From: Planctomycetota bacterium
GTDB taxonomy: Bacteria > Planctomycetota > PUPC01 > JACPCR01
Direction of reading: 5' to 3'
DNA: 16,378 nucleotides
NCBI GenBank assembly: GCA_027625095.1
Contig: JAQBXN010000165.1
Location: 1 to 16,378 of the forward strand
Part shown: positions 1 through 16,378 of the stretch, one piece after another
How the letters are laid out: each line of letters starts with the position of its first letter
How positions within the stretch are numbered: position 1 is the stretch's first letter
Translations under genes and position numbers: made by a program
The notes under the pieces: generated by a model
Database searches by the model: none
Told to the model about the DNA's origin: nothing
The model's input: the letters and a program-made list of their open reading frames with translations, nothing else

Positions 1-65
1 TTGCCGTGGTTTAAATCAAATCATGAATTCGCGCTTCTCTGGGCTGATGTAAAACTCCGAAACTA

Positions 66-593: not shown

Positions 594-614
594 ATGATTT
601 CTCCCACTCGCCCT

Positions 615-641
615 TGAAAAACTGTCCCGCCTCCATACAAT
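615..641 (+). promoter_or_regulatory. putative sigma70-like promoter (TTGAAA – 15 nt – TACAAT) upstream of the MamK-like gene
   Basis: TTGAAA at 615-620 and TACAAT at 636-641 are separated by 15 nt, about 120 nt upstream of ATG 763. The call rests only on hexamer resemblance; the spacer is shorter than the optimal 17 nt. Promoter rules in Planctomycetes are poorly defined. Confidence 0.2.
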
Positions 642-762
642 TCGTCCGTCATTGAGGCCCCTACCTCACAGGACGTTTCAGTCCACCCTCTCCCAACCTA
701 ACCTTTATTGCCCGGCGTCTCTGCGTCTTTAATTTTTCCCCATAAGACCGGAGGCCACCCTC

Positions 763-1968
763 ATGCCCGAGGAAAAACTGGATTCCGCGGTCATCCGACC
801 CGAAGAATCGTCCACCATATTTCCTGATTCCATCGACTCTACCATCCGAGCTGCCAGTTCCAACGCGAGGAACCCCATCCCCAGTAAGAACACTGGAATG
901 GTGCAGAAAGAGTCTTTTGGCACCCCAACCCCGCTCTATGTTGGTATCGATCTTGGTACCTCCCGCAGCTCTGTTTGCGCTTCGAACGGACGACGTGCTT
1001 CGTTGCCCACTGTCGTAGGCTGGCCCAAGGATCCGATCGCACGCGGTTTCCTCAAAAAAGACATCGTCTTTGGTGAAGAGGCTATCGCGAATCGATTGTC
1101 CATCGAAACTGTCCGGCCTGTCGAGGTCGGTGTCATCAAAGTGAGTGCAAGTCAAAAGCCTGGCATCGGCCGCCTGGAAAAGCCGGATAGCAAAGTCAGA
1201 GAAGCTGCCTCTGAATTCATCAAGCATCTCATTGAGCTTTGCGAACCGCTTCCCAATCAGCAGGTCTTTGCAGCGATAGGGACTCCCGGTCAGATCGATC
1301 TTGCCCACAAGGAAGCCCTGCTCGAAGCCGCAAAGGAATCTGTTCACCAGATCCACCTTACCACCGAACCTTTTGCCGTCGCCTATTCTCTTAGCAGTCT
1401 TCACCATGTGCTTGTCGTGGATATCGGAGCTGGGACGACTGATCTGTGCCGCGTTCATGGCAGCCTGCCGGATAGTGAAGACTATCTCACGCTTGAGCAG
1501 GCCGGAGACTTCATCGATTTTTGTCTCTACGAACTCTTGGAGAAAAACCACAAGGGCGCTCAGTTCTCCCGCCAGCAGGTGACACAGATCAAGGAGCAGT
1601 TCTCCAGCGTCGCGCCGGGCGAACCGATCGAAGTCATTTTGCCTGTGAATGGTGTGCCGACAAAGCACAACATTACCAGCGATATGAAGCAGGCGTGCAG
1701 CAGTATCATCGAACCCATCGCCACGGCCATCCGCAAACTGGTCGGTTCGTACGATCCGGAATTCCAATCCAAGCTTAAGTCGCAAATCTGGCTTTCCGGT
1801 GGCGGCTCGCTCATCAACGGCTTGCCGAAAGCCCTTGAGCATGCCATTGGTCCCCTCGGCGCAGGCACCTCAGTGCGACGTGTGCCTGACCCTGTTTTTG
1901 CAGGTGCTGACGGCGCTTTGAAGCTGGTGCAGACGATGCCAGCAGATTATCGGAAGGTGCTGTCGTAG
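763..1968 (+). CDS. mamK-like: actin-family filament ATPase, MamK-like (MreB/ParM/Hsp70 superfamily)
   Basis: Phosphate-1 motif LYVGIDLGTSRSSV follows a ~50-aa N-terminal extension, as in MamK (LFLGIDLGTSHTAV…VVGYPKD versus our …VVGWPKD). Phosphate-2 VVDIGAGTTDL, IKEQFSSV, adenosine motif WLSGGGSLINGL and C-terminal PDPVFAGADGALKL all line up with the corresponding MamK blocks (IIVDIGAGTTDI, VKEQFSFV, IVFAGGGSRIRGL, KDPTFDGCRGALRL). A strong GGAGG RBS lies at 751-755. An alternative internal start at ATG 898 would remove the N-terminal extension. The overlapping minus-strand ORF 661-1842 is an antisense shadow. Confidence 0.85.
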   Translation: MPEEKLDSAVIRPEESSTIFPDSIDSTIRAASSNARNPIPSKNTGMVQKESFGTPTPLYVGIDLGTSRSSVCASNGRRASLPTVVGWPKDPIARGFLKKDIVFGEEAIANRLSIETVRPVEVGVIKVSASQKPGIGRLEKPDSKVREAASEFIKHLIELCEPLPNQQVFAAIGTPGQIDLAHKEALLEAAKESVHQIHLTTEPFAVAYSLSSLHHVLVVDIGAGTTDLCRVHGSLPDSEDYLTLEQAGDFIDFCLYELLEKNHKGAQFSRQQVTQIKEQFSSVAPGEPIEVILPVNGVPTKHNITSDMKQACSSIIEPIATAIRKLVGSYDPEFQSKLKSQIWLSGGGSLINGLPKALEHAIGPLGAGTSVRRVPDPVFAGADGALKLVQTMPADYRKVLS

Positions 1969-2128
1969 TCAGTGGACTGAGCAATCTCTCATAATTACTC
2001 GGAACCAACGCCGCATTCGTAGGAGGGAAGGCAGTACACCCAAAGAACCGGGTTACCTGCCTGGCTTACCATAAGGGTGTGGTTTCTCTTTTGACTGCTG
2101 TTTGCATTCGATAAAGCATTCGCCCAAA

Positions 2129-3088
2129 TCATCTCTTCACACTTTTATTGTCACCTGCAGCCAGTGCGAGCACCTGACTCAACGTGGCGAAGCTCAGATC
2201 TCCGGGCGTCGTCATCTTCAGTGCTGACATCGCAAGCCCATACTTGAGCGCTTTATCGGGATCGTCCTTGAAATAGCCGTAGAGAAATCCGCCGACAAAG
2301 GCGTCCCCCGCGCCGATTCGGTCGATCTCTTGAACCGTGTGACCCGCCTCCTTCAGGGTTTTTCCTTCGGCACGGACGATCGCTCCCTCGCCGCCAAGCG
2401 TCAATACCGTCCATTTTGTTCCAAATCGCGCGGCCGCGGCTTCTACCATTTTTTCCGCGCTGCCTTTGATGGCGAAGAGATCTTCCGCATCGTCGGACGT
2501 CATGAACAAAACATCTGCTTCCTTCATCAGAGGCTCGAGTACCTCAGAGGCGCGACCAGGAGGCCAGAGTTTCTGACGATAATTCACATCAAACGAGATC
2601 GTCAGCCTATCCTCTTTCGCCCTGGCAATCGCAGTGGTCACACATTCCGCGCATGACGGACTGAGCGCCACCGTAATGCCGGTTACGTGCAGGTGCTTTG
2701 CTTTCTTGAGCACGCTCCAATCTACACTTTCCGGATCGAGCCTGCTGGCAGCCGATCCTGCCCGGTCGTACACAACCTCCGTTGAACGAGGCGGCGCGCC
2801 CAACTCCATAAAGGCTACTCCGTTGCGGCCTTCGTCCGTCCAACGCACTTGAGATACATCCACGCCGTGTGCTCGGATCATGTTCGTAATACGCCTGCCG
2901 ACGGGGTTATTCACCAGCCGTGAAAACCAGCACGACCGCAAACCCAGACGGCTGAGCGCAACCGCCACATTTGATTCGCTGCCGGCACACAAGACCTCAA
3001 ATTCATCCGCTTGTTCGAGTGTTTTATTGTTTTTTGGAGAAAGGCGAAGCATCGTTTCGCCAAAGGTGACAACGTGATATTTACTCAT
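2129..3088 (-). CDS. kdgK: 2-dehydro-3-deoxygluconokinase (PfkB-family carbohydrate kinase)
   Basis: N-terminal HVVTFGETMLRLSP matches the KdgK VIGECMIELS block. FDVNYRQKLWPP…DVLFMTSDDAEDLF matches FDNNYRPRLW…DIAFLTLDDEDALW. The PfkB signature-2 GAGDAFVGGFLYG is present with the catalytic Asp. The 319-aa length is typical. Confidence 0.85.
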   Translation of the reverse strand: MSKYHVVTFGETMLRLSPKNNKTLEQADEFEVLCAGSESNVAVALSRLGLRSCWFSRLVNNPVGRRITNMIRAHGVDVSQVRWTDEGRNGVAFMELGAPPRSTEVVYDRAGSAASRLDPESVDWSVLKKAKHLHVTGITVALSPSCAECVTTAIARAKEDRLTISFDVNYRQKLWPPGRASEVLEPLMKEADVLFMTSDDAEDLFAIKGSAEKMVEAAAARFGTKWTVLTLGGEGAIVRAEGKTLKEAGHTVQEIDRIGAGDAFVGGFLYGYFKDDPDKALKYGLAMSALKMTTPGDLSFATLSQVLALAAGDNKSVKR

Positions 3089-3420
3089 GGTGGTCCATTT
3101 GTTTATCAGTAAAAAGCGTCTGACGGCCGCCCCATTTTATACCTTCGCACTGATGGTGCGGATAACGTAATCTGGAGATCCTTCCGGACAGCCGCAAGCC
3201 CTGACTCCATTCTCAGGACTGAAATCGGGGTGTGATTCCCGAGACTTGTGGCAAACAATCTATTGACAATCTTGCTCACTTCCACGACAAAAAGTCTCGT
3301 GCCGATCTGTTTCGACGAGAACTGAATAACGAGGCAGGTGAAATACCTGGGGCAACGGGTACGGCAACCTGAGTTTCTTCTTGGCGGTAGGAATGATCTG
3401 TCCTCAGGAGGCAAAAGGCC

Positions 3421-4104
3421 ATGGAGTTTTTCCAGCAAATTGTCACAGTTGGGATGCTGCCCTATACCATCTTTCTGGGCATCGTGGTGGCTTACTGGCT
3501 GTTTATGATTATCGGTTTTGTCGGAATCGATTTGCTCGATTTTGATATCGACATGCCGGACGTCGATGGGCTCGACGGCGCAGCCGACGCGGTCGGCGAT
3601 GGCGCGATTGAGTCCGCTGGAGACGCGCTTGAAGGTTCGATGGGCGCGTTCAAGTCCCTCCTTGTATTTCTGAATATCGGCACTGTGCCGGCCACCATCG
3701 TGCTCAGTTTCATCTCGGTAAAGCTCTGGTTTCTGGCCTTCGTTTATAACTTCTGGCTGCCGGCATCTTTGCGCGGGATTTTTCCACCGGTGGTAATGGG
3801 GCTTCTGGCTTTTTCCGCTTTCTTCGTTGTCAGCACTGCGCTCACACACATCACGACCAGGCCATTCCGGCGCCTCTTTCTCCACAAGACCACACACGGA
3901 GAACATCAGCTTGTTGGAAAAATCTGCATCGTGAAGACCTCGAAAGTAACGAATTCGTTCGGCCAGGCTGAACTTAAGGTCGAAGACTCTGACTTATTGA
4001 TTGCGGTTCGAACTAAAGAAGAACTCGGCTTCAAAAAAGGTGACGAAGCCATCATTATTGATTACGAAATCGAGAAAAACGTTTACGAAATTGTTCATAT
4101 TTGA
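3421..4104 (+). CDS. NfeD/YqiJ-like membrane protein (flotillin partner; N-terminal TM helices plus C-terminal OB-fold-like beta domain)
   Basis: Three hydrophobic helices (LPYTIFLGIVVAYWLFMIIGFVGI; LLVFLNIGTVPATIVLSFISVKLWFLAFVY; VVMGLLAFSAFFVVSTAL) are separated by an acidic D/G/A-rich linker. The C-terminal ~80-aa soluble beta-rich segment (GKICIVKTSKV…GDEAIIIDYEIEKNVYEIVHI) is typical of the NfeD OB-fold. The gene sits immediately upstream of, and 43 nt from, the SPFH/flotillin gene, as in yqiJ–yqiK pairs. AGGAGG RBS at 3405-3410. Confidence 0.7.
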   Translation: MEFFQQIVTVGMLPYTIFLGIVVAYWLFMIIGFVGIDLLDFDIDMPDVDGLDGAADAVGDGAIESAGDALEGSMGAFKSLLVFLNIGTVPATIVLSFISVKLWFLAFVYNFWLPASLRGIFPPVVMGLLAFSAFFVVSTALTHITTRPFRRLFLHKTTHGEHQLVGKICIVKTSKVTNSFGQAELKVEDSDLLIAVRTKEELGFKKGDEAIIIDYEIEKNVYEIVHI

Positions 4105-4147
4105 ACCTGGCGTTGTGGTTTTTTAGTCCTATTGGAGGGGAAACATT

Positions 4148-6208
4148 ATGGCTCCTTTCATCGCCCTCGGATTCGCCGGATTTATTATCCTGGTCGGAAT
4201 CCTGATCCTGATTATTCGGTGCTATCGCAAAGTCTCACAGGGCACGGCGCTCATTATCAACCAGACCCGCGGCAAAGTGATCGTTTCCTTTACTGGCGGC
4301 GTGGTCATCCCGATCATTCACAAAGCTGAGTACATGGACATCTCTGTCAAGGCGATGGAGATTGACCGCAGCGGCTCGAACGGCCTCATCTGTGAAGACA
4401 ACATTCGCGCCGACATCAAAGTCACCTTCTATGTGCGTGTAAACAAAACCGAAGAGGACGTGAAACGAGTGGCCGGCCTCATCGGATGCGAGCGTGCTTC
4501 CAAACGGGACACCCTGGAAGAGCTCTTTTCCGCAAAGTTTTCAGAGGCACTGAAGACTGTCGGAAAGCAGATGGAGTTCACGACGCTGTTTACCGAGCGT
4601 GAGAAATTCAAGGAAGCCATCATAAATATCATCGGCGCCGATTTGAACGGTTACAAGCTCGAAGACGTCGCCATCGATTATCTCGAGCAGACGCCTCTCG
4701 AATCCCTCGACGTAGACAACATCCTCGACGCTCAAGGTATCCGGAAGATCGTCGACCTTACCTCGATCGAATCCATCGCCACTAACAGTTTCCGGCGGAA
4801 CAAGGAGAAAACGATCAAGCAGCAGGACGTCGAAGCCAGGGAAACAATTCTCGAGCTGGAAAAGCAGCTGGCCGACGCCGAGGCCCGCCAGAAACGGGAG
4901 ATAGAAACCATCCAGGCCCGCGAACAAGCAGAAACCGAGAAAGTGCGCGCCGAAGAACATCTCAAGTACGAACGTGCCCAGATTCAGACCGCCGAAGAGT
5001 TGGCTGTTGCTCAAGAAAACAAACAGCGTCAGATTGAGATTGCACGTAAAGCCCGTGAACGCGCCGTATTGGTGGAGGGAGAACGAGTCGAACGCGACCA
5101 GCAGCTCGAGGCGGTTGAACGTATTCGCCTTGTCACACTGAAGGACATCGAGAAGGAAAAGGCCGTCGAGATCGAGAAGAAGAACATTCAGGAGGTCATC
5201 CGCGAACGCGTCATCGTTGAGAAGGGCGTTGCTGTGGAACAGGAGAAAATCAAGGACACAGTCGAGCTCGCCGGCGCCGAACGTCAGCGCCAAATCCAGG
5301 TAATCGCCGCGCAGCGTGAGGCTGAGGAAAACATGGTTATCGAGGTCAAGGCCGCGGAAGCCAAGGAAAAGGCCGCTAAGAGTCTTTACGAAGAGGCTAT
5401 TACTCAGGCCGAGGCAAGACACCTCTCTGCGATCAAAGAATCCGAGGCCAAAAAGGTGCTCGCCGAAGGCATTATCGCCGAGCGTTCCGCTGAAGGACTG
5501 GCGCAGGTAAGAGTCCGAGAATCCGAGGCCAACGCTATCGAGCTGCAGGGCAAGGCAGAAGCCTCGGCCGCGATGGAAAGGGCGAAGGCAGACGCATTTG
5601 CAATCGAGTCAAGGGGTGGAGCTGAAGCCAAGGCAGCGTCCGCCAATTACCACGCTAAGGCCCAGGGCATTGAAATCACCGGCTTCGCAGAGGCCAAGGC
5701 CATCGACCAGAAGGCCGAGGCCATGAAAAAATTCGACGCGGTCGGTCAGGAGCACGAGGAATTCAAGCTCCGGCTCGGTAAACAGGAACGTGTCGAAATT
5801 GCTCAGATCGACGTCAACCGCCAGATCGCCGAGGCCCAGTCCCGCATCCTCGGCGAGGCGTTGAAGTCAGCCAACATCGACATCGTCGGCGGCGATGGCC
5901 AGTTCCTGAACAACTTCTTCAAATCCATCACCCTGGCCAAGTCCCTGGACGGCTTCGTCGATAAGAGCGACGTCATTCAAAAGCTCTCTAACGGCGATAT
6001 CAACAGCCTGATGGCAAAGGTCAAAGACCTGATCGGCCGCGAAGGCCTGGGCTCGGAGGACATCAAGAATCTGACAGTCTCCGCTCTGCTGGCTCGCCTA
6101 GCCCTCAAGGGCAAGGACGACAACATCCGGGATGAGGCAACGGGTCTGCAGGGCCTGGTCAAGAGCCTCGGTGCGGAAGATCTGATGGCCATGTGGTTAG
6201 CGAAGTGA
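4148..6208 (+). CDS. flotillin-like SPFH/Band-7 domain protein (YqiK/FloT family) with long Glu/Ala-rich coiled coil
   Basis: An N-terminal membrane anchor (FIALGFAGFIILVGILILIIRCY) is followed by an SPFH domain (KVSQGTALIINQTRGKV…ISVKAMEIDRSG…DNIRADIKVTFYVRV). Then comes a ~270-aa EA-repeat coiled coil (…QLADAEARQKREIETIQAREQAETEKVRAEE…) and a C-terminal flotillin tail. GGAGGGG RBS at 4133-4139. The minus-strand ORF 4541-5422 is a low-complexity shadow of the EA repeats. Confidence 0.9.
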   Translation: MAPFIALGFAGFIILVGILILIIRCYRKVSQGTALIINQTRGKVIVSFTGGVVIPIIHKAEYMDISVKAMEIDRSGSNGLICEDNIRADIKVTFYVRVNKTEEDVKRVAGLIGCERASKRDTLEELFSAKFSEALKTVGKQMEFTTLFTEREKFKEAIINIIGADLNGYKLEDVAIDYLEQTPLESLDVDNILDAQGIRKIVDLTSIESIATNSFRRNKEKTIKQQDVEARETILELEKQLADAEARQKREIETIQAREQAETEKVRAEEHLKYERAQIQTAEELAVAQENKQRQIEIARKARERAVLVEGERVERDQQLEAVERIRLVTLKDIEKEKAVEIEKKNIQEVIRERVIVEKGVAVEQEKIKDTVELAGAERQRQIQVIAAQREAEENMVIEVKAAEAKEKAAKSLYEEAITQAEARHLSAIKESEAKKVLAEGIIAERSAEGLAQVRVRESEANAIELQGKAEASAAMERAKADAFAIESRGGAEAKAASANYHAKAQGIEITGFAEAKAIDQKAEAMKKFDAVGQEHEEFKLRLGKQERVEIAQIDVNRQIAEAQSRILGEALKSANIDIVGGDGQFLNNFFKSITLAKSLDGFVDKSDVIQKLSNGDINSLMAKVKDLIGREGLGSEDIKNLTVSALLARLALKGKDDNIRDEATGLQGLVKSLGAEDLMAMWLAK

Positions 6209-6236
6209 ACGTAATACGTAATACGTAATACGTAAT
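6209..6236. repeat. tandem heptamer repeat (ACGTAAT)x4 – left arm of an inverted-repeat pair
   Basis: Four perfect ACGTAAT units run from 6209 to 6236, directly abutting the flotillin stop codon (TGA 6206-6208). Each unit junction creates the palindrome TACGTA. Confidence 0.9.
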
Positions 6237-6304
6237 CAGACTCCTCGCTCGATACCATCTACTCACGCCACCTCACCCTCAGGAGTATGAACTACTAGGA
6301 TTGG

Positions 6305-6784
6305 TTGAATTCAGTTCCCGCAGCGATCAGTGAAGATGTGGTGTGGAAAATTACCGCCTACAGGTACGCCTTGTTTATTAGTGAGCTAGCTTGGGTGGAC
6401 TGTGAAAACCTCAACAAGCATCGCCTTGCGAGGAACAATTCCAGCCAGTTGATCAGGGCTGCGGGTTCGATCAGTGCGAATATAGAGGAAGGTTTCTCCC
6501 GCAAATCAGACAAGGATATAGCTCGTATGTACGAATATGCATTGGGTTCAGCAAGAGAGACAAGAGGCTGGTACTACGAATCCAGACACGCTCTCGGAGA
6601 TGAGGTGGCTGACCACCGAATGAAACTTCTTAGAGAGGTCATACAACTGCTGTTAACAATGATCCCTGAGAGAAGAAACTCATACAAAGTCAGAGAATCA
6701 GAAGTCATATATGAAACCAGTCCAAGTGGAAGTGGAGTTGAAGAATTTCAGGACATCCTAAACAACGTCCCAATGCCAGATTAA
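6305..6784 (+). CDS. four-helix-bundle protein of the 23S rRNA intervening-sequence protein family (TIGR02436 / PF05635; DGR Avd-like fold)
   Basis: Family hallmark blocks are present: …WKITAYRYALFISELAWV… (helix 1), QLIRAAGSISANIEEGFSRKSDKD (matches the conserved Q[IL]RRAA.SI.SNIAEG..R.S.K[DE] block), YEYALGSARETRGW (matches A.GS..E.). A ~40-aa C-terminal tail extends beyond the usual ~120-aa bundle. The start is probably TTG 6305 (AGGA at 6296-6299) or GTG 6338/6341; there is no in-frame ATG near the N-terminus. The gene is noticeably AT-richer than its neighbours. Confidence 0.75.
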   Translation: MNSVPAAISEDVVWKITAYRYALFISELAWVDCENLNKHRLARNNSSQLIRAAGSISANIEEGFSRKSDKDIARMYEYALGSARETRGWYYESRHALGDEVADHRMKLLREVIQLLLTMIPERRNSYKVRESEVIYETSPSGSGVEEFQDILNNVPMPD

Positions 6785-6794
6785 CAACTTTCTT

Positions 6795-6821
6795 ATTACG
6801 TATTACGAATTACGTATTACG
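6795..6821. repeat. tandem heptamer repeat ATTACGT-ATTACGA-ATTACGT-ATTACG – right arm, reverse complement of the 6209-6236 repeat
   Basis: The reverse complement of 6795-6821 is CGTAATACGTAATTCGTAATACGTAAT. This matches the upstream (ACGTAAT)4 array at 26 of 27 positions. It ends 4 nt before ATG 6826 of the giant ORF. Confidence 0.9.
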
Positions 6822-6825
6822 CCCC

Positions 6826-9800
6826 ATGGCCGAAGAAGACATCCAACCCAACACAGACGAGCAGCCTCAAGAAGGCCAAGCCCTCGAAGGTGGCGCTTAC
6901 GAGGTTCTCCGCAAACGGCTGCAAGCGCTTGACTCTCAGTTGGTGGATCGTCTCGAAAAACTGAATTCGAAGCGGAAAGAAACCTTCGGGGGGATGGACA
7001 GCCAGATTATCGGGAACGAACGAATTCACACCGATAACAATTGTATTCCCCGAGATCTTGTCGGGCTCGGCCATCTGCTGATCTTTGGCTACAACGTTTT
7101 TATTGGACTGAAAACTGAGACGAAACTGACGGACGTCTTCGCAGTTCATCGCTTCGATGGCGCTGAGTTTCAGGCTGTTGAGCCCACGATTATTGGTCAC
7201 CCGGATTTCATTCGTGATTTTCATGAACTCTACAAGTACTACAAGAACGCCAGATTTCTTCAGTTCGTAAAATCACCCGGTAAACTCCTGATTGTTTTCC
7301 AGGCCGGCGAAAGCATCACCGATAACAAAATCTTCCGATTTCTCATCGAGCGTGATGAATCCCTGGTTTACATCGACGATCGGGGCGACGTCGAATACAA
7401 GCTGCCTGCGCAGCACGACTTCCGATGGACGGTCACTACCCGCGACGATCAGGTGTTCGGCGCCCACCCACACGTCTCCATTCGAGATCAGGTCTTTGTC
7501 GAAACCATCGGCGGCGATCTGACTATCAAAATTGAAGACAACACCCGCTCAGGCGAAGGCATCTACGCAGAGCCCGTCGAAGACCGCGATCAATCCCTCG
7601 ACGACGCGTTCATCGCCTATGCTGAAGTTGGTGACCTGATCCTTCTGAAGATTCTTCCGTATCGTGAAATCAAGTATCGATATATTGTCTTCAACTCAAA
7701 GGATCATTCAGCCGTTCGGATCGACTCCATCGAGCAGGCTTGCATACAGTTGCCGGAAGGACACGGCATAATTTTTCCCAAGGGCTATTACCTTCAAAAC
7801 GGAGTTTATCGGCAGTTTGATGAAGACGTCCAGGGCATGGTCTATCACGACTATATCTCCTCTCCGAACGGCGAGGACTACCTTTACGTCTTCTATCACC
7901 GCGAGCACGGACGCTACATCCTTCTCCAATACAACCTCATCTCCAAGGAGATTTCGAACCCAGTCTTCTGCCACGGCAAATCTTTGTACGAAGATGGAAA
8001 GATGGTGCTCTTCACCGCACCGGACCAAGAACCGCGCCGGAATCATCCGATGCAAATCTGGCAAACGCCGTTTTACGGGGATGCGTACGATGTTCCGCTC
8101 AAAGCGGACACGTTCCTCACGAAGGTAGGTAACCGCGATCTGGTGCGCGGCATTTCGGAGGGATTCACTATCAGTCGGCTCGTCCAGACAGAACGCGCCA
8201 CGCTGACAACTTACGAAGATCTGATTACCTCGTGTACCAACATGATGGACGGGTATCACTGGCTCGCCCATGAGGAAACATTCAATGTTCGGGAGATAGT
8301 TGTCGAAGTCAAGAGCGCCGGCATTGCTGCCATTGATGAGTACGAAAAGGTTCTCCGAATCAAGCAAAACACGGCTGGCCAGATCAAAGAGAACCAGGAA
8401 GCAGTTCGGAAATTGACCCTTGAGACCACACCCGACCGCATGCGCAGCATCGATGATTTCGTTAACGGGCTAAGCGAGATTCGAAGTCGCAGGGGCAAAG
8501 TCATTTCTTTGCGCGAGCTCCGATATGCAGATCTGCCGGCCATCGAAGCGATGGACCAACAGCTCGAAAGGTCCAACGAGGATGTCTCGATCGGCTGCGT
8601 TGATTACCTGCTCCTGCCAGATTCGCTGAATCCATACATTGATCGGAACCAGGAGATCGAATCCGGACTGGGCGAAATCCAGAAGGTGGCGGAACTAAAA
8701 GATGAGCATAAACAACTCGAAGACCTGGCATCAAGACTCGACCTGCTTACAGATATCGTCAATAACCTGAATATCGAAGATGCCACCAAGACCACGCAGA
8801 TTGTCGATGCGATCACAGACGTTTATTCCGGAGTAAATCGCACCAGAGCCCAGATCCGAAACCTGCATCAGGATCTCGGCAAAGCCGAGGCCCGGGCCGA
8901 GTTCGCCGCGCAATACAAATTGCTCAGCCAGAGTATTACCAACTACATCGGCATGTGTGATTCAGTCGAAAAGTGCGACGAATTTCTCACCAAATTAATG
9001 ATCACTATCGAAGAGCTTGAGGGCCGCTTTTCGGACTTCGAAGAATTCGCGGAGAAGCTCGCGGAGAAACGTGAAGAGGCATACAACGCGTTCTCAAACC
9101 GCAAGCAGGTGCTCGACGAAGAGCAGAAGCGAAAGGTCGGGGCGCTCATCTCCTCTGCCGAACGAATCCTGAAAGGGATCATCAACCGGGCCGAGAGCTT
9201 CAGCAATGTAGATGAGGTCAACGCATACTTCGCATCGGATCTGATGGTCTCGAAGCTTCGGGACATTATTAAGCGCTTCTATGACATGGATGAATCGGTC
9301 AAGGCCGATGATTTTTCCGGTCGCTTGAAAAGCACCAAGGACGAAATTCTCCGCCGTCTGCGAGACAAGTTAGACCTGTTCGAAGGAGGCGATAACGTTA
9401 TTTCATTCGGTGATTACAAATTCACCGTCAACACGCAGAAGCTGGAACTCACTACTGTACTGCGTGACGAGGAAATGCTCTTCCATCTGACCGGAACGGA
9501 TTATTACGAGGAAATTCGAGACGAAGAGTTTCTTAAGACTCGTGAGTTGTGGCGGCAGGAAATCATCAGCGAGAACCGTGATGTGTACCGGGGAGAATAT
9601 CTCGCTTATAAGATCTTGATGGCCGCGGCGAACAATAAAGACGGTTTCATCCTGACAGAACTAACCGAACTGGTAAGTGAAGAGAAAACGCTCCTTGATC
9701 GTGTGCGCGCTTATTCGGGGAGCCTCTATAACGAAGGCTACGACAAGGGTATTCACGACTGTGACGCGACAAAAATTCTGCAGGCTCTGATCGGGCTGTA

Positions 9801-11880
9801 TAACACTACCGCCTTGCTGCGTTACGATTCAGAGTCCCGGGCCTTTGCCATCCTTTTCTGGTGCTTCTACCCGGACAAAGAGGAGAAGCTCCAGCTCCGC
9901 AATAAACTCAGAAGCTTCGGTGCGCTGGGCAAGATATTCGAATTCAAGGATGTGAACCCGGCTTATGTCATTGAAATTCGAAACGCAATGGGGCCGTTCT
10001 TTGAAAGCCTCGGAAGGAAGGTCTGCGGCCCGACCCTGAGTCTGGCAGCGGAGTATCTCTACAACGAACTGCAGGACAGCGATCTCCTGGAGTTCACGAT
10101 TAACGCTCTCGCGCAGGAGTTACATGACCATTTCTTCGACTATCTCGCCAAGAAGGGCAAAGACGAAGATTTTAGGTCCGACATTGGTGCGCTGAACGGC
10201 AGCACAAAACCACAAATCGATCTGATTCATGATTGGGTCTCAACCTACGTGCGCACTCAGGAAGATGCAGACTCCGGGCATTTTGTGTGGGAGGTTGTTG
10301 CGCTCATTGCCGCGGGTGAGGTGATTAATCGTGATACTACGTCTGTGACGACGTTCGCTGAGGTAGACGGCCTGCTTGGCCAGCATCGGCTTATTGGAAA
10401 CAAGAAACTCAAGATTCATTTCGATCTGTTCCTGATTCGCCTCAAACAGTTCGCAGAGGAGCAAGTGCCTCTGTTTCAAAAGTACCAGCAACTTCGAACT
10501 CAACTCACCCAGGCGCGTCGCAAGGAACTCAGACTTTCCGAATTTGAGCCGAAGGTCATGGGATCATTTGTGCGCAATAAATTGATAAATGACGTTTACC
10601 TGAATCTGGTGGGCGCTAACTTCGCTAAACAGATGGGGGCGGCCGGCGATTCAAAGCGGACGGATCTGATGGGACTGCTGCTGCTCATCTCCCCGCCGGG
10701 TTACGGCAAAACCACTCTGATGGAATACATCGCCAGTCGTCTCGGACTTACCTTCATAAAGATTAACGGCCCTGCTATTGGACATGCAGTGACGTCGCTC
10801 GATCCGGCTGAAGCCACGAATGCAACCGCACGGGAAGAATTGCAGAAGCTCAATCTCGCCTTTGAGATGGGCAACAACATCATGATCTACCTGGATGACA
10901 TCCAGCATTGTAATCCGGAACTCTTGCAGAAATTCATCTCACTCTGCGACGGCCAGCGCAAAATCGAAGGTGTCTATAAGGGTAAGACCAAGACTTACAA
11001 CCTGCGCGGCAAGAAGGTCTCGGTCGTCATGGCCGGAAACCCATACACCGAGAGCGGTGATAAATTTCAAATCCCGGACATGCTCGCCAACCGTGCTGAC
11101 ACCTACAATCTGGGCGACATTTCCAGCACAGAGAGCAAAGCGTTTGAAATGAGTTTCATCGAAAATGCGATGACCTCGAATCCTGTGCTGAGCAAGATCA
11201 GCAGTCACGGCCACGATGACATTTACCGGCTCATGCAGATCGTCGAGACCGGCAGCCGGCAGGGAGTCGAGTTGGAACACGGCTATTCGTCCGAGGAGGT
11301 GACCGAGATAGTGAATGTCCTCAGCAAACTGTTTCGGGTCCGTGACGTAGTCCTGCGGGTCAATCAGGAATACATTTATTCAGCTGCGCAAGAAGACGAC
11401 TATCGTACCGAGCCGCCCTTCAGGCTCCAGGGCTCATATCGCAACATGAACCGTATCGCGGAGAAGATCTTTCCGGTGATGACAGATAAGGAAGTCGAAA
11501 GGTTGATTCTCGATAGCTACTACAACGAAGCCCAAACCCTGACCTCCGGCGCCGAATCCAATCTGCTCAAGTTCAAAGAGATCATTGAGATCCTCAGCGA
11601 AGAGGAAAAAAAACGCTGGTCAGCTATCAAGAGCGAATTCAATCGCCGCCAGTCACTCGCCGGTATGGACGACGAAGACGACATCGGAAAAGTCCTCTCC
11701 CAGCTCAGCGGCTTCAACAAAAACCTTGGCGACATGCGCGAAGTCATCGCGGGTGCAGCAAATTACCTCGCCCAGAATATGGACAAGGGCTTCAATCAAA
11801 ATCTGAAAATAGTAGTGGACGAAAACCTGCTCAAGATTCTGTCCAAGGGCAGCGCGGCCGTGAAAAAGGCGAAGGAGTAA
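6826..11880 (+). CDS. giant (1684 aa) multidomain protein with C-terminal MoxR/AAA_5-type AAA+ ATPase domain; the N-terminal ~1250 aa are uncharacterised (beta-rich N-terminal region, central coiled-coil/helical region)
   Basis: A single uninterrupted 5055-nt ORF. The C-terminal AAA+ module has Walker A LLISPPGYGKTTLMEY (Lys at nt 10708-10710), Walker B NNIMIYLDDIQH (DD at 10894-10899) and sensor-1 VSVVMAGNPYTESGDKF. An arginine-finger region IPDMLANRADTYNL fits the MoxR pattern NP.E..G.Y.LPEAQLDRF. A central region (~aa 560-800: …LERSNED…EIQKVAELKDEHKQLEDLASRLDLLTDIVNNLNIED…) looks coiled-coil. No Shine-Dalgarno precedes ATG 6826. Antisense ORFs inside it (7708-8367, 8256-8576, 10939-11280 and others) are rejected as shadows. 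Confidence 0.8.
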   Translation: MAEEDIQPNTDEQPQEGQALEGGAYEVLRKRLQALDSQLVDRLEKLNSKRKETFGGMDSQIIGNERIHTDNNCIPRDLVGLGHLLIFGYNVFIGLKTETKLTDVFAVHRFDGAEFQAVEPTIIGHPDFIRDFHELYKYYKNARFLQFVKSPGKLLIVFQAGESITDNKIFRFLIERDESLVYIDDRGDVEYKLPAQHDFRWTVTTRDDQVFGAHPHVSIRDQVFVETIGGDLTIKIEDNTRSGEGIYAEPVEDRDQSLDDAFIAYAEVGDLILLKILPYREIKYRYIVFNSKDHSAVRIDSIEQACIQLPEGHGIIFPKGYYLQNGVYRQFDEDVQGMVYHDYISSPNGEDYLYVFYHREHGRYILLQYNLISKEISNPVFCHGKSLYEDGKMVLFTAPDQEPRRNHPMQIWQTPFYGDAYDVPLKADTFLTKVGNRDLVRGISEGFTISRLVQTERATLTTYEDLITSCTNMMDGYHWLAHEETFNVREIVVEVKSAGIAAIDEYEKVLRIKQNTAGQIKENQEAVRKLTLETTPDRMRSIDDFVNGLSEIRSRRGKVISLRELRYADLPAIEAMDQQLERSNEDVSIGCVDYLLLPDSLNPYIDRNQEIESGLGEIQKVAELKDEHKQLEDLASRLDLLTDIVNNLNIEDATKTTQIVDAITDVYSGVNRTRAQIRNLHQDLGKAEARAEFAAQYKLLSQSITNYIGMCDSVEKCDEFLTKLMITIEELEGRFSDFEEFAEKLAEKREEAYNAFSNRKQVLDEEQKRKVGALISSAERILKGIINRAESFSNVDEVNAYFASDLMVSKLRDIIKRFYDMDESVKADDFSGRLKSTKDEILRRLRDKLDLFEGGDNVISFGDYKFTVNTQKLELTTVLRDEEMLFHLTGTDYYEEIRDEEFLKTRELWRQEIISENRDVYRGEYLAYKILMAAANNKDGFILTELTELVSEEKTLLDRVRAYSGSLYNEGYDKGIHDCDATKILQALIGLYNTTALLRYDSESRAFAILFWCFYPDKEEKLQLRNKLRSFGALGKIFEFKDVNPAYVIEIRNAMGPFFESLGRKVCGPTLSLAAEYLYNELQDSDLLEFTINALAQELHDHFFDYLAKKGKDEDFRSDIGALNGSTKPQIDLIHDWVSTYVRTQEDADSGHFVWEVVALIAAGEVINRDTTSVTTFAEVDGLLGQHRLIGNKKLKIHFDLFLIRLKQFAEEQVPLFQKYQQLRTQLTQARRKELRLSEFEPKVMGSFVRNKLINDVYLNLVGANFAKQMGAAGDSKRTDLMGLLLLISPPGYGKTTLMEYIASRLGLTFIKINGPAIGHAVTSLDPAEATNATAREELQKLNLAFEMGNNIMIYLDDIQHCNPELLQKFISLCDGQRKIEGVYKGKTKTYNLRGKKVSVVMAGNPYTESGDKFQIPDMLANRADTYNLGDISSTESKAFEMSFIENAMTSNPVLSKISSHGHDDIYRLMQIVETGSRQGVELEHGYSSEEVTEIVNVLSKLFRVRDVVLRVNQEYIYSAAQEDDYRTEPPFRLQGSYRNMNRIAEKIFPVMTDKEVERLILDSYYNEAQTLTSGAESNLLKFKEIIEILSEEEKKRWSAIKSEFNRRQSLAGMDDEDDIGKVLSQLSGFNKNLGDMREVIAGAANYLAQNMDKGFNQNLKIVVDENLLKILSKGSAAVKKAKE

Positions 11881-12362
11881 TGGTGACTGACAACCTTGAC
11901 CCCTTCGAAGAACTATGTGCAATTGTCGATACGCTAAATGAAGAGGGTATCGAGTTCGCAGTCTGTGGTGGCCTTGCTGTGGCCATCTACGGCTATGCTC
12001 GCACGACCCAGGATATCGATATCCTGGTCAAAGAAGAAGATCTCGAAAGCATACAAAACGTAGTCCGGCCTCTTGGATTTGACATCGCTTCAGGCTTTAT
12101 GCGATTCAATAGTGGCACCCCTGGTGAACGAACGATCTTCCGCATTCTGAAGATCGTTGGTTCTCACGATTTAATGTTAGATTTGATTCTTGTGGGCGAC
12201 TTCCATACCGAAGTCTGGGAAAGCAGATCAGTGGCGGAGTATCAGGGCAGGAAATTTTCGATAGTTTCACGGTTGGGATTGAAAAAGATGAAGGAAAAGG
12301 CTGGCAGAGCAAAGGACCTTACAGACATTGAAGAACTGGGCTTAAACAATGTCGGACAGTAA
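11880..12362 (+). CDS. minimal nucleotidyltransferase-fold protein (Pol-beta superfamily; AbiEii/DUF1814-like or MNT-like core)
   Basis: FAVCGGLAVAIYGYARTTQDIDILV fits the NTase-fold motif hG[GS]-x(9-14)-DhDh. It resembles the AbiEii core GGTAL…R.S.DIDF and the MNT block ARG…SDIDLLV. The C-terminal KEKAGRAKDLTDIEEL block is common in this group. The start ATG overlaps the stop of the giant gene (TAATG, 11878-11882), and AAGGAG lies at 11870-11875. Confidence 0.55.
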   Translation: MVTDNLDPFEELCAIVDTLNEEGIEFAVCGGLAVAIYGYARTTQDIDILVKEEDLESIQNVVRPLGFDIASGFMRFNSGTPGERTIFRILKIVGSHDLMLDLILVGDFHTEVWESRSVAEYQGRKFSIVSRLGLKKMKEKAGRAKDLTDIEELGLNNVGQ

Positions 12363-12783
12363 CGTAAACAAAGAGCCCGCTAGGGTAGATATGTCCCCTG
12401 AAGGCATAATCAATCGCTTGAAGAAATCGGCAGCCCTCTACCGCATGTCACTGAAACTTGGAATGTTCAGGCCTGCAAACGTGCCACAGTTCGTCGATCC
12501 GGATAAACGGCTTTTGCGCCTGCCCGATGAACTCATCAGGGACGAAGACGGCTTTCTTCGCGTGGCCGGTTCACGAGTCGGTTTTTTCCGTCTGGTCAGC
12601 CTCCATCGCAGCAAAGGCCTGGATGCCGTTGAACTCAATAAATACTTCTACGAGGAATATGACCGCCATGTATCAGTCTGTTATCTCATGGCGGTGCTGA
12701 AATTCTACGAAGAGAATAAAACAGTCATCGACCTTTACGTAGATTCTTACGAAGACGGTAAGTCCGAGGCACATTCTCGATAG
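12349..12783 (+). CDS. hypothetical 144-aa protein, overlapping partner of the nucleotidyltransferase-fold gene; possible HEPN-like partner (weak)
   Basis: The ORF overlaps the preceding gene by 14 nt (ATG 12349 inside …AACAATGTCGGACAGTAA). It contains an R-x4-H motif (FRLVSLHRSKG), loosely compatible with HEPN. It is predicted mostly helical with no TM segment. The 300-aa ORF on the opposite strand (12673-13575) is rejected. Confidence 0.45.
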   Translation: MSDSNVNKEPARVDMSPEGIINRLKKSAALYRMSLKLGMFRPANVPQFVDPDKRLLRLPDELIRDEDGFLRVAGSRVGFFRLVSLHRSKGLDAVELNKYFYEEYDRHVSVCYLMAVLKFYEENKTVIDLYVDSYEDGKSEAHSR

Positions 12784-12792
12784 ACCGCACCA

Positions 12793-15700
12793 ATGCCCAT
12801 CCCAATCCAATGCCCCAATCCGGAATGTAAGAAGAGTCTCAGCCTGCCAGAGGAGCACGCGGGCAAGGCAGTAAAGTGCCCTGCTTGTGGCAAGACGCTG
12901 AAGGTACCGGAAGGGATTACCAAGTACGGCGAATTCAAAATTGTGCGCCAGATAGGAAAGGGCGGAATGGGCACAGTTTATGAGGGTCTTCAGGTAAGCC
13001 TGCAGCGGCGAGTGGCGCTCAAGGTGCTCGACCCCAATTTCTCCAGCAATGCACGATACCTCGGGCGTTTTGTCCGTGAGGCAAGAGCTGCAGCGGCCAT
13101 CCAGCACCCGAACATTATCCAGGTGTTCGACATTGGCGAGGACAATGGAAGACATTTCTTCGCCATGGAATTCGTGGAAGGCGAAAACGCTTTTGAAAAA
13201 CTTAAGCGTGATGGAGCGTTTTCCGTCAGGGCTGGCCTCGAGATCGCTGGCCAGATTGCGAAAGCGCTTCAGGCCGCGGGGAAGCAGTCCATCATCCATC
13301 GGGATATCAAGCCGGACAACATCATGCTGGGCCGGGAAGGCCAGGTAAAACTTGCCGACCTCGGGCTTGCCAAAAATGTCGAAGATCAAACCACGGTCAC
13401 GCAGAGCGGCGCGGCCATCGGCACCCCACATTACATCGCGCCAGAACAAGCAAAAGATGCGGCCAATGTGGATCACAGAGCCGACATCTATGCACTCGGA
13501 GTAACCCTCCTGCATCTGCTTACAGGCAAGCGGCCATTTGACGGCGACAAGCCCTGGGACATTGTCGAAAAGCATGTGAACCAGCCACTGCCGAAAGGCG
13601 CCGACCTCGGCGTCGAACTCCCTGACGCGGTTGACCGGTTAATTCAGAAGATGGCGGCCAAGGAACCCGACAATCGTTTTCAGGACTACGAATCGCTGCT
13701 CACCGCAATTGAGACTGCCCAGAATGACAAGGAGGAAAAACGTCCTGAAAAGGTCATCCAGCAGCCCAAACTCAAACCGAGGCGTGATACGCCGCGCAAG
13801 AAGAAGATTCCAATCGCGCTTTATGCAGGGCTGACAGCAGCCATTGCTGTGGTCATTGGCATCACAGTAATGGTGTTCGATTCAGGAGGTCCTCAGCCGC
13901 ACCGTATGGTGGGTTACAAGAAAATAGAGAAGACGGTTGCCTCTACGACCACCATCCCCAAGCCGCCCTCCGCCGGTCAAGTCCCTCCCAAGACGACCTT
14001 TGCGACCTTCAAGGAGGTTAATGACTATGTAAAAGAAAATCCGGACGCCTATGGCGAAATCATCGGGATGTATCGAAAGATCTCGGACAGCATCGACAAC
14101 GTCAATGACAAAATGCGGGCGGACGCACTCATCAACTCATGGAAAAGAAAATGGGAGGAAGCTGCGGCCGAGGCCCTCAACGGAACTCAAAATAACGTGA
14201 AGGCTCATCTCGCAGCATCGCAGTTCGGGATGGCCCAGACTGCTTTGAATGACTTCCCGGTTGCATTGCTTCATCAGGGTGTAGTGGAAGAAATTGATAA
14301 GCTCCGGTTGCAGATTGAAGCAGCCAAAGACGCGTTTATCGCCGAACTTAAGTCACGCGGAAAGCCGATTCTTGAAAAAGAGCCCGGCGATCTCTCCCGT
14401 GAAGATATTTCCACCTTGAACTGGGTATTGAAGCGAACCCAAAGTGGCGAACTCGGCCTTTCTTTTCTCCAAGCGAAGGAAGTTCGTGATTTTTCGAAGC
14501 AAGTCTCTTCTGCAGTATCCCGATACAGAGCACATGAAGACAGACGAATCGCACTTAAGAGTCAATTCTGGGATTCCTATCGGCGTCTCATTACAAGCAA
14601 GCAGTTCGAGCAGGCACGCACGACCGTCCAGGAGGCCGAACCTCTGGAGGCGGAGGAAAAGAGCCTGCTGATCAGGCACACCTCTCTGATCGAAAAATCA
14701 CTTGAACCGGCAGCCAGAAATATGCCCCTTGAAAAGGCGCTCCATCAATTTCACTTCGGCGAAGAGAGGGATTCTATCCCTGAATTCGAGCTCGCATCGA
14801 AATCCGGACAAGATGTCCGTTTATATCTTCACCTGCTGGGTGCAGATTTGCCGGAATGGATGAGTGGTGCTTTTGAGATTCCAGAGGAATCAGAGGATAG
14901 TCACGGAAATCCCATTCGAAAAGGTGTGGATAAGAAGTCGGGGCTGCCATTTGAAATCCGTAATAGATCGTCCGGAATTCATTTCATGCTCCTTCCAGCC
15001 GGACAGTTCATGATGGGAAGTCCCGAAACTGAACAGGATCGCCACTCAGACGAAGGTCCATTACATCCTGTGGGAATCACCCGCCCTTTTTACATGGGCA
15101 AGTATGAGGTCACCGGTGCGGATTGGGAGAAGGCCAACGGAGCCAAATGGGCTTATGCTCGAGGCGAAGATTTCCCACTTACAGAGATTCGCAAATTGAC
15201 CGCAATGATGTTTGCCAGCCAGTTGAGCCGGCAACTGGCCGGAGGACGGCTTCGACTGCCGACTGAAGCCGAATGGGAATATGCATGCCGGGCCGGCAGC
15301 ATCACGCCTCTGCATTACGGCACAGATCCGGAATATGCAATGACCGCGGACTACGGGTGGTTCAAAGAGAATTCCGGCGGCAAGGTTCGACCGGCCGGGA
15401 TGAAGAAACCGAATGACTGGGGTCTCTACGACATGATCGGAAACGTCTGGGAATATGTTCTCGACAACTACGATGTCTACCCTACTGAACCGGAGACTGA
15501 CCCTTACTATCCGCCCATTGGAACGATCCCGCGCACCATCCGAGGCGGCGGTGTTTTATCTGATGCCGGCCAGTTGAGATCTGCCGAGCGCAGTAGAAGC
15601 AGGTTTGGGGCCAGTGATGAGAGCAACGGATTCAGGCTAATGCTCGAGCAGTCGCGCAAAGAGCACCAGGTACCTGGCATGCCGAACCCGGTTTTCAAAA

Positions 15701-16248
15701 ACCTGTTTAAGGCCAGAGAGCAGAAATCATGGGTGCGCTCGGGCGATGGCTTTTTTAATTGGGGATCAGGCCTCGGCTGGACGGACGGTGGCCCTGGCGG
15801 CATTGTCTATACCGCAAAGAAATATCAAAATTTCATCCTCAGATTCGATTGCCTGGCCAGCGATCTCTTGAAATCGGATGCCGGCATTTTCTATCCCATG
15901 AATGGACAGGACCTCACCAGGGATAAGACGGAGCACACCTTCAAAATCGAGCTGTCAGGCCCCAGGACCGGGTCAATTTCCCATAAAGACGAAACACTCC
16001 GATCCACCGAACTGCCACTCCAGCCGGGATGGAATTCCATCGAACTCATCGTATGGGAACGTGATGTCTATACCACCCGGGAGGGAGTTGCCCTTACCCA
16101 TTGGCAGCGACCCTCTGCTAAAGAAGGCCTCCTGGCAATCGAAGGAGTAGCACAACAGTTCTGTCTCAGGAATTTCAGAATCCTGGAATTGCAGCAGAAA
16201 CCGGCGGAGTTCATGAAAAGCCTCAATGACAAGGCGGCCGCGCTGTGA
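12793..16248 (+). CDS. membrane Ser/Thr protein kinase: N-terminal Zn-ribbon, Hanks-type kinase, single TM helix, FGE-sulfatase-like domain, C-terminal DUF1080-like (jelly-roll / 3-keto-disaccharide-hydrolase-like) domain
   Basis: Zn-ribbon CPNPEC…CPACG. Kinase motifs are GKGGMGTVY (P-loop), VALKVL (β3 Lys), HRDIKPDN (catalytic loop), KLADLG (DFG→DLG variant) and GTPHYIAPE. A K/R-rich linker precedes the TM helix IPIALYAGLTAAIAVVIGITVMVF. FGE-sulfatase-like blocks include FMLLPAGQFMMGSP, RLPTEAEWEYACRAGS, NDWGLYDMIGNVWEY and RGGG. The C-terminal GWTDGGPGG…FKIELSGP…GWNSIELIV block resembles DUF1080. The gene starts 9 nt after the previous ORF. Confidence 0.88.
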   Translation: MPIPIQCPNPECKKSLSLPEEHAGKAVKCPACGKTLKVPEGITKYGEFKIVRQIGKGGMGTVYEGLQVSLQRRVALKVLDPNFSSNARYLGRFVREARAAAAIQHPNIIQVFDIGEDNGRHFFAMEFVEGENAFEKLKRDGAFSVRAGLEIAGQIAKALQAAGKQSIIHRDIKPDNIMLGREGQVKLADLGLAKNVEDQTTVTQSGAAIGTPHYIAPEQAKDAANVDHRADIYALGVTLLHLLTGKRPFDGDKPWDIVEKHVNQPLPKGADLGVELPDAVDRLIQKMAAKEPDNRFQDYESLLTAIETAQNDKEEKRPEKVIQQPKLKPRRDTPRKKKIPIALYAGLTAAIAVVIGITVMVFDSGGPQPHRMVGYKKIEKTVASTTTIPKPPSAGQVPPKTTFATFKEVNDYVKENPDAYGEIIGMYRKISDSIDNVNDKMRADALINSWKRKWEEAAAEALNGTQNNVKAHLAASQFGMAQTALNDFPVALLHQGVVEEIDKLRLQIEAAKDAFIAELKSRGKPILEKEPGDLSREDISTLNWVLKRTQSGELGLSFLQAKEVRDFSKQVSSAVSRYRAHEDRRIALKSQFWDSYRRLITSKQFEQARTTVQEAEPLEAEEKSLLIRHTSLIEKSLEPAARNMPLEKALHQFHFGEERDSIPEFELASKSGQDVRLYLHLLGADLPEWMSGAFEIPEESEDSHGNPIRKGVDKKSGLPFEIRNRSSGIHFMLLPAGQFMMGSPETEQDRHSDEGPLHPVGITRPFYMGKYEVTGADWEKANGAKWAYARGEDFPLTEIRKLTAMMFASQLSRQLAGGRLRLPTEAEWEYACRAGSITPLHYGTDPEYAMTADYGWFKENSGGKVRPAGMKKPNDWGLYDMIGNVWEYVLDNYDVYPTEPETDPYYPPIGTIPRTIRGGGVLSDAGQLRSAERSRSRFGASDESNGFRLMLEQSRKEHQVPGMPNPVFKNLFKAREQKSWVRSGDGFFNWGSGLGWTDGGPGGIVYTAKKYQNFILRFDCLASDLLKSDAGIFYPMNGQDLTRDKTEHTFKIELSGPRTGSISHKDETLRSTELPLQPGWNSIELIVWERDVYTTREGVALTHWQRPSAKEGLLAIEGVAQQFCLRNFRILELQQKPAEFMKSLNDKAAAL

Positions 16249-16378
16249 GCTGAGGAAGGGAGGCAGGCGCCCCCGCTCCCCCCCACGATCACGTCAAAGT
16301 CAGAAGGCGGGCGGGCATGGGGCCGGTGAGTGCGTGAGGCGAGAGGGCAAGATCGAGCCGATTCGCACTGTTTCAGGG

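Follow-up and report, generated by a model that had tools for sequence, protein, structure and literature searches.

The closest described relatives of the locus analysed here come from a computational survey by Ravi et al. (2024, mSystems; PMC11237479, section 19, Table S3), who noted in PspA/flotillin operons a protein of the type 'beta-propeller + coiled-coil + AAA+ ATPase' and proposed for it a chaperone-like part in membrane dynamics analogous to that of the endosomal sorting complex required for transport (ESCRT); no experiment was reported. Our locus lies in a 16,378-nucleotide (nt) stretch of DNA from a Planctomycetota bacterium (assembly GCA_027625095.1, contig JAQBXN010000165.1, positions 1 to 16,378 of the forward strand), referred to below as the window, and includes at 6826-11880 a gene for a 1684-amino-acid (aa) ATPase. 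This ATPase has the same domain order as the protein of Ravi et al. and the same upstream partners, one YqiJ/YuaF-like and the other a Band-7/flotillin protein. One of the neighbourhoods in Table S3, that of Dokdonia donghaensis (ANH61663.1), has the very gene order that we recovered independently in Bacteroidota loci. The window corresponds to what these authors call an 'abbreviated operon', lacking the PspA/CesT dyad, and shows no difference of kind from it; it departs from the described operon in two lineage-specific insertions, a four-helix-bundle cassette before the ATPase gene and a nucleotidyltransferase pair after it. Our literature search found no paper mentioning DUF3686 or PF12458, the Pfam family that covers the N-terminal region of the ATPase, and papers on SPFH evolution, on a Pseudomonas aeruginosa SPFH protein and on ESCRT do not mention the ATPase.

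The 1684-aa protein is an ordinary full-length member of a widespread, catalogued family, and the window copy is nothing new in kind, its operon having been described previously in silico. It is the family that merits attention, with its ~1,700 residues, its presence in more than 10 phyla and its near-locked association with flotillin; the single instance is of modest interest. We read the protein as a soluble remodelling ATPase that forms the third component of a three-gene membrane module and acts on flotillin/envelope-stress assemblies, and would put the probability of this reading at about 0.55.

A conserved three-gene module

The module comprises, in order:

3421 to 4104, + strand: YqiJ/YuaF (NfeD)-like small membrane protein, 227 aa, first gene of the three-gene module
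4148 to 6208, + strand: YqiK-type flotillin, 686 aa, with an N-terminal membrane anchor, an SPFH/Band_7 domain, a long helical stretch rich in Glu and Ala, and conservation at the C-terminal end
6826 to 11880, + strand: DUF3686-DUF7902-AAA+ protein, ATG start, 1684 aa, soluble and without a transmembrane-like segment

The extent and length given to the ATPase open reading frame (ORF) in the first-pass annotation match the sequence exactly. The protein is considered free of transmembrane-like segments because its maximal 19-residue Kyte-Doolittle mean is only 1.52, and the stretch that reaches this value is a beta-strand of the N-terminal domain.

We examined 80 genome loci from at least ten phyla, 75 of them with informative upstream DNA. 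Of these 75, 73 (about 97%) have a flotillin gene of the ~700-aa YqiK type directly upstream in the same orientation, and a YqiJ-like gene is present upstream in 51 loci; Sulfidibacter, Gimesia and the plasmid pQBR103 all keep the same gene order. Downstream of the ATPase gene nothing is conserved among the 80 loci. Clustering of 82 neighbourhoods gave the same picture: only the ATPase, flotillin and YqiJ-like families recur in more than 13, and scanning of the smaller neighbour clusters revealed PspA, CesT-like, helix-turn-helix (HTH), phospholipase D (PLD) and rhomboid proteins. Pairwise identities among the ATPases are correlated with those among the flotillins (Mantel r=0.84, with 0 of 999 permutations as high), which shows co-inheritance of the two proteins, not contact between them. 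It had been suggested at first pass that a coiled coil in the ATPase might interact with that of the upstream flotillin; the link to flotillin is indeed strongly supported, through gene order and not through the coiled-coil argument.

Identification of the two partner proteins called for some care. The full-length flotillin has no match in Pfam, NCBIfam or the PDB, and the precomputed annotations of its orthologues are equally blank, apparently because the Glu/Ala-rich helical region triggers HMMER composition filters; the blank is not evidence against an SPFH domain. Scanned alone, the N-terminal 231 aa match Band_7 (PF01145) at E=6e-12, and the protein is 50% identical to its Gimesia orthologue over 692 aa. 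The small membrane protein is more divergent, at 30% identity to the Gimesia orthologue at the equivalent position. By itself it gives a weak match to YqiJ_N (E=0.1); among 19 orthologues, eight match Pfam YqiJ_N (best E=3.6e-8), two NfeD and one YqiJ_OB, and the sole PDB match of the family profile is Bacillus subtilis YuaF (E=0.11).

Family membership, fold and ATPase class

The first-pass annotation had left some 1250 aa of the protein unassigned, and had offered the N-terminal part as a possibly novel module. About 520 of these residues belong to Pfam families. DUF3686 (PF12458) matches aa 39-478 at E=5e-187 and 622.3 bits (cutoff 25), over profile positions 2-448 of 448, and DUF7902 (PF25472) matches aa 599-679 at E=2e-23 and 82.8 bits (cutoff 26); aa 1285-1408 exceed the gathering scores of both AAA and AAA_5. 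The same four Pfam families were present in all 19 homologues scanned. Together with the structural models described below, these matches divide the protein as follows:

6940 to 8259, + strand: Pfam DUF3686, aa 39-478, taking in helix 24-54, the beta-propeller-like domain 60-413 and the first bundle helices
8620 to 8862, + strand: Pfam DUF7902, aa 599-679, inside the helical-bundle region (aa ~490-851)
9379 to 10650, + strand: middle region, aa 852-1275, modelled with block pLDDT mostly 80-95
10651 to 11175, + strand: AAA+ alpha/beta core, aa 1276-1450, with the modelled core at 1283-1449
11176 to 11784, + strand: helical lid and C-terminal helices, aa 1451-1653, with helices modelled over 1456-1653

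A search of 5.8 billion clustered proteins found more than 5,860 related clusters. The 120 relatives listed are all collinear with the query, with 80-100% query coverage (96-100% in most) and 46-99% identity, so that the architecture is not the unusual one it had been taken for. The named organisms among them are Lentisphaerae, Planctomycetota, Verrucomicrobiota, Bacteroidota, Acidobacteriota (Sulfidibacter) and delta-proteobacteria. When one genome per species was scanned, at least 564 species had the gene, which extends the range to Kiritimatiellota, Omnitrophota, Myxococcota, Clostridia, Gammaproteobacteria (Pseudomonas, Xenorhabdus) and Actinomycetota; further carriers, from plasmid and chromosome records, are Proteus mirabilis, Vibrio, Streptomyces, Deinococcus and the megaplasmid pQBR103 of P. 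fluorescens. Identity across phyla is 44-50%, and the family extends over at least ten of them.

The check proposed for the N-terminal region, a search for its fusion partners in other proteins, was made by comparing the first 480 aa with 1.84 billion representatives, which gave 713 matches. Among the best 150, which we inspected, every protein of at least 1,600 aa but one carries DUF3686 N-terminally, and the shorter ones look fragmentary. Since DUF3686 is N-terminal in nearly all the long proteins of this set, it is essentially confined to one architecture; the region is an assignable, beta-propeller-like family domain.

The usual NCBI name of the listed relatives is 'DNA repair ATPase'. Full-length matches under such a name had been mentioned in advance as grounds for giving up novelty: they exist, and the novelty of the architecture is gone with them, but the label has no defined function behind it. 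We consider it very improbable that the ATPase acts in DNA repair as annotated, as a RuvB-like or SMC-like factor. That proposal draws on the name, on the Pfam description of PF12458 as 'ATPase involved in DNA repair', on a weak match to the RuvB_N P-loop (E=2.6e-4, 21.2 bits, below the 27-bit cutoff) and on the presence of RuvB among Foldseek matches. Against it, the Pfam scan of the 19 homologues gave no repair-family match above cutoff and no other nucleic-acid domain, the 80 loci have no recurrent DNA-repair or recombination gene neighbours, and no supporting literature was found. NCBIfam yielded no family match, just sub-threshold hits to the P-loops of RuvB (21.6 bits against a cutoff of 282) and CDC48. 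Sequence searches of the PDB, whether from the single protein or from a profile of 19 sequences, likewise got no further than the P-loop (~35 residues) of p97 and RuvB and gave no structural homologue. The name is an unsupported annotation and the family probably misnamed, and to correct it would be useful, since many genome and plasmid records carry it.

Two AlphaFold2 models, derived from 39-sequence alignments, span aa 1-520 and aa 490-1684. The first, with a predicted local distance difference test score (pLDDT) of 86.9 and a predicted template modelling score (pTM) of 0.83, consists of a disordered tip, helix 24-54, an all-beta domain (60-413) and then helices; the all-beta domain forms about seven groups of four strands and is beta-propeller-like. 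In the second (pLDDT 83.8, pTM 0.63), aa 490-851 are modelled as helices of 14-58 residues separated by short loops, which look like hairpins or bundles where a coiled coil had been placed at 560-800. The middle region that follows begins with a small beta subdomain (858-896); a helical domain (922-1163) separates this from a second one (1168-1198), after which pre-AAA helices (1199-1270) lead on to the core. Domain-wise conservation in the middle region is 0.43-0.69. The C-terminal ~230 aa, earlier described as an acidic tail, form in part the AAA+ lid; they contain 38 Asp and Glu against 32 Lys and Arg, for an isoelectric point of 5.3 where that of the whole protein is 5.1. The layout given at first pass, beta-rich, then helical, then AAA+, then a helical C-terminus, was thus broadly right, and overstated in its coiled coil and its acidic tail.

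All four ATPase motifs claimed for the protein were found, and none of them varies in two alignments, of 19 and of 39 homologues, spanning many phyla. Walker A is SPPGYGKTT (aa 1289-1297, nt 10690-10716), with K1295; Walker B is IMIYLDDIQH (aa 1352-1361, nt 10879-10908), with D1357 and D1358; sensor 1 is VVMAGNPYT (aa 1400-1408), with N1405; and the candidate Arg finger, R1423 (nt 11092-11094), lies within MLANRAD (aa 1419-1425). K1295, D1357, D1358, N1405 and R1423 are each invariant in both alignments. In the AlphaFold model the motifs stand where an AAA+ fold would have them: Walker A follows beta1, beta3 ends in Walker B, beta4 ends in N1405, and R1423 immediately precedes beta5. The core is the most conserved part of the protein, with 91 of 175 residues invariant; conservation of the propeller is also substantial (66 of 357). 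A further invariant motif, YRTEPPF(R/K)LQGSYRNMNR (aa 1526-1543), lies within the lid and C-terminal helices, and its R1539 may be the sensor-2 residue. With its catalytic residues all invariant, the AAA+ module is predicted from sequence to be ATPase-competent.

The AAA+ core is canonical in the model, in agreement with Foldseek, has a pre-sensor-1 beta-hairpin (aa 1378-1393, nt 10957-11004) and is closest to solved MoxR structures; on these models the module is of the MoxR/CbbQ/NorQ-dynein-midasin (AAA_5) structural type, and it does not fit the classic AAA clade (PF00004: FtsH, Vps4, p97). The family that defines MoxR proper, AAA_3 (PF07726), was matched by none of the 19 homologues at E<=0.01; these proteins contain no VWA family, and no VWA gene recurs nearby. 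The earlier term 'MoxR-like' therefore holds at the level of the AAA_5 or MoxR-dynein-midasin group and does not hold for MoxR proper, in the lack of an AAA_3 match and of a VWA partner.

A dynein-like architecture for the whole protein was considered and rejected: the top Foldseek matches reach E=2e-7, but with template modelling scores of 0.13-0.17 and a very large root-mean-square deviation, and we treat them as AAA-module plus generic helix similarity. Descent of the helical region and AAA_5 module from a common ancestor with the linker-plus-AAA unit of dynein and midasin is speculation to which we attach very little weight. A mainly structural or mechanical role for the ATPase is only slightly less improbable; it would make the ring a hub whose six propeller-tipped helical arms coat or tether membranes in the manner of clathrin, or would have the arm work as a linker that swings on ATP hydrolysis like that of dynein or midasin; in neither case would the protein be a substrate unfoldase.

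Accessory genes and insertions

Several lineages add genes to the module. In Bacteroidota loci PspA_IM30 (E=9e-41), CesT_Tir_1 (E=1e-56) and an HTH regulator are found upstream, the full operon running HTH regulator, CesT_Tir, PspA, YqiJ-like, flotillin, ATPase. In Pseudomonas chromosomes a PLD-type (HKD) phospholipase gene lies directly downstream of the ATPase gene, and in Xenorhabdus a rhomboid gene does so. These recurrent, lineage-specific extra neighbours are all membrane-related. On pQBR103 (L084, NC_009444.1 86401-103317) the module comes directly after a rhomboid gene and a yjfKLMC-like cluster (cf. E. coli) of DUF2491, DUF350, DUF1190 and glutathionylspermidine-synthase-like genes.

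The Bacteroidota operon raises the alternative that the ATPase targets not flotillin but something that the flotillin scaffold holds: PspA/ESCRT-III-like polymers, which it would disassemble as Vps4 does, or unfolded membrane-protein clients. In favour are the PspA and CesT-like chaperone genes of that operon, the ESCRT-analogous dynamics proposed by Ravi et al., who allow that abbreviated operons may use PspA encoded elsewhere (PMC11237479), and a report that flotillin microdomains stabilise unfolded proteins (PMC11222466). We regard this alternative as rather unlikely, though the most credible of those set out here.

In the window, flotillin and ATPase genes are separated by a gene for a four-helix-bundle '23S rRNA intervening sequence protein' (IVP; ORF 6305-6784; PF05635 E=2e-14, TIGR02436 E=5e-17). 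The gene forms a discrete cassette (6210-6821), whose ends (6210-6240 and 6791-6821) are the arms of a 31-nt inverted repeat, 94% complementary and made of tandem CGTAATA heptamers; no such repeat is expected by chance, and the arms pair in the predicted RNA fold. An 89% relative (L085) carries the same cassette with a perfect 27-nt inverted repeat of GTAATGA heptamers. As the repeat there is built of a different heptamer, both arms have changed together. A 72% relative (L086) has no cassette. The cassette could be a mobile element like an intervening sequence, with its stem as an RNase III-type site for processing of the operon mRNA.

Insertion at this point is not peculiar to the window. In about 16 genomes the gap between flotillin and ATPase genes contains unrelated small genes (for example L010, L036, L039, L043, L047 and L079), among them DMP19-like, DUF3997, AbiEii nucleotidyltransferase, IS200-like transposase, lipoprotein and esterase genes. 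Selfish or accessory genes seem to settle in this gap repeatedly.

On the other side of the ATPase gene, a 160-aa nucleotidyltransferase gene overlaps the ATPase stop codon by 1 nt (TAATG) and is itself overlapped by a 144-aa ORF that follows it, the pair spanning 11880-12783. The nucleotidyltransferase gives weak matches to NTP_transf_5, Aminoglyc_resit and AbiEii, and the 144-aa ORF has no family match; the two resemble a toxin-antitoxin-type pair. The 89% relative has this pair; the 72% relative and all 80 loci lack it, and it is accordingly taken to be a lineage-specific hitch-hiker. Further downstream, ORF 12793-16248 encodes a 1151-aa Ser/Thr kinase fused to FGE-sulfatase and 3-keto-disaccharide-hydrolase-like domains; its strong PADLOC matches, to PD-T4-6 and mad6, are limited to the kinase domain, and it is not conserved beside ATPase homologues. 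Upstream of the module are a divergent actin/MreB-like ATPase of 401 aa (MreB_Mbl E=3e-16, Actin E=2e-9) and an adjoining PfkB sugar kinase on the opposite strand (763-1968 and 2129-3088), a pair that is kept in the 89% relative. The four-helix-bundle gene, the nucleotidyltransferase, the 144-aa ORF and the Ser/Thr kinase were each considered as parts of the system and rejected, none being conserved beside homologues. Rfam and tRNA scans of the window found nothing.

This setting bears on another possibility, that the three genes form an anti-phage or abortive-infection system which senses infection at the membrane. The window copy stands amid genes of defence-island type (the IVP cassette, the AbiEii-like nucleotidyltransferase pair and the Ser/Thr kinase), toxin-antitoxin, immunity and insertion-sequence genes have entered between the flotillin and ATPase genes elsewhere, and patchy distribution, the 44-50% identity across phyla and megaplasmid copies would all suit such a system. 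However, the defence-type neighbours occur in none of the 80 loci and are absent from the 72% relative; no homologues were found in phage or viral collections; and the conserved accessory genes, PspA and CesT-like, fit a theme of envelope stress. PADLOC-DB 2.0 gave for the ATPase only IetA, over 29 P-loop residues at E=9e-4, and for flotillin nothing (the YqiJ-like protein was not scanned). Because no PADLOC defence model matched, we down-weighted a defence role and consider it improbable.

Proposed function and comparison with known machines

MoxR-type ATPases act as hexameric rings, with an adaptor by way of which they remodel a target, and SPFH proteins form membrane-attached cages that are sometimes coupled to AAA+ machines such as FtsH and the m-AAA protease. 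By analogy with the former, the ATPase of the three-gene module would assemble into a hexameric ring, with the propeller and helical-bundle arm standing in for the VWA adaptor that MoxR ATPases normally have as a separate protein. The propeller-tipped arms may then attach the ring to flotillin assemblies on the cytoplasmic side of the membrane, where ATP hydrolysis would remodel them, whether in assembly, opening, disassembly or client unloading, during envelope stress. Flotillin itself as the substrate is a narrower proposal, and one that we make only tentatively. We are equally hesitant about its extension to the family at large, namely that these proteins are dedicated ATP-driven machines for assembly and disassembly of bacterial flotillin cages, MoxR-type rings docking by their built-in propeller and helical arm on the cytoplasmic dome of the cage to open or recycle it. 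Were this true, the family would supply the first enzymatic partner of bacterial flotillins and a direct handle on flotillin microdomain function. What bacterial flotillins do is still debated, and a conserved ATPase partner would make the question directly testable.

Several points weigh against our reading of the protein as a remodelling ATPase for flotillin/envelope-stress assemblies. Two loci (L023 and L033) have no upstream flotillin despite 10 kb of upstream DNA. Contact between ATPase and flotillin is something we infer solely from gene order and co-inheritance, and adjacent genes in shared genomes would be correlated anyway. Walker B has an invariant DD where DE is usual for the clade, a substitution that, judged from sequence, could mean slow hydrolysis or a role as a nucleotide-dependent switch. 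Lastly, our literature search found no experimental work on any member of the DUF3686 family.

Known systems resemble the module in part. MoxR proteins of the CbbQ/NorQ type are stand-alone ATPases of ~260-500 aa with a VWA partner gene (CbbO, NorD); in the window protein, by contrast, the AAA+ module makes up the last fifth of a 1684-aa chain, with no recurrent VWA gene, with DD instead of DE in Walker B and without an AAA_3 match. For an SPFH cage that works with an AAA+ machine there are literature precedents in HflK/C-FtsH and prohibitin-m-AAA, and flotillin is reported to form membrane cages (Qiao et al. 2022, cited in PMC13086221; PMC13376388; PMC11260169). The likeness to HflK/C-FtsH and prohibitin-m-AAA is that of an SPFH scaffold together with a hexameric AAA+ enzyme at the membrane, the coupling being inferred in our case from gene order alone. 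The enzymes themselves differ: FtsH and m-AAA are classic-AAA-clade proteins with a membrane anchor and a protease domain, whereas the window ATPase is soluble, AAA_5-like and without a protease domain. A further likeness is to Vps4 and ESCRT-III, of the PspA/Vipp1/Snf7 superfamily, in that an AAA+ protein is linked genomically to membrane-remodelling polymers, PspA being encoded in the operon itself in some lineages.

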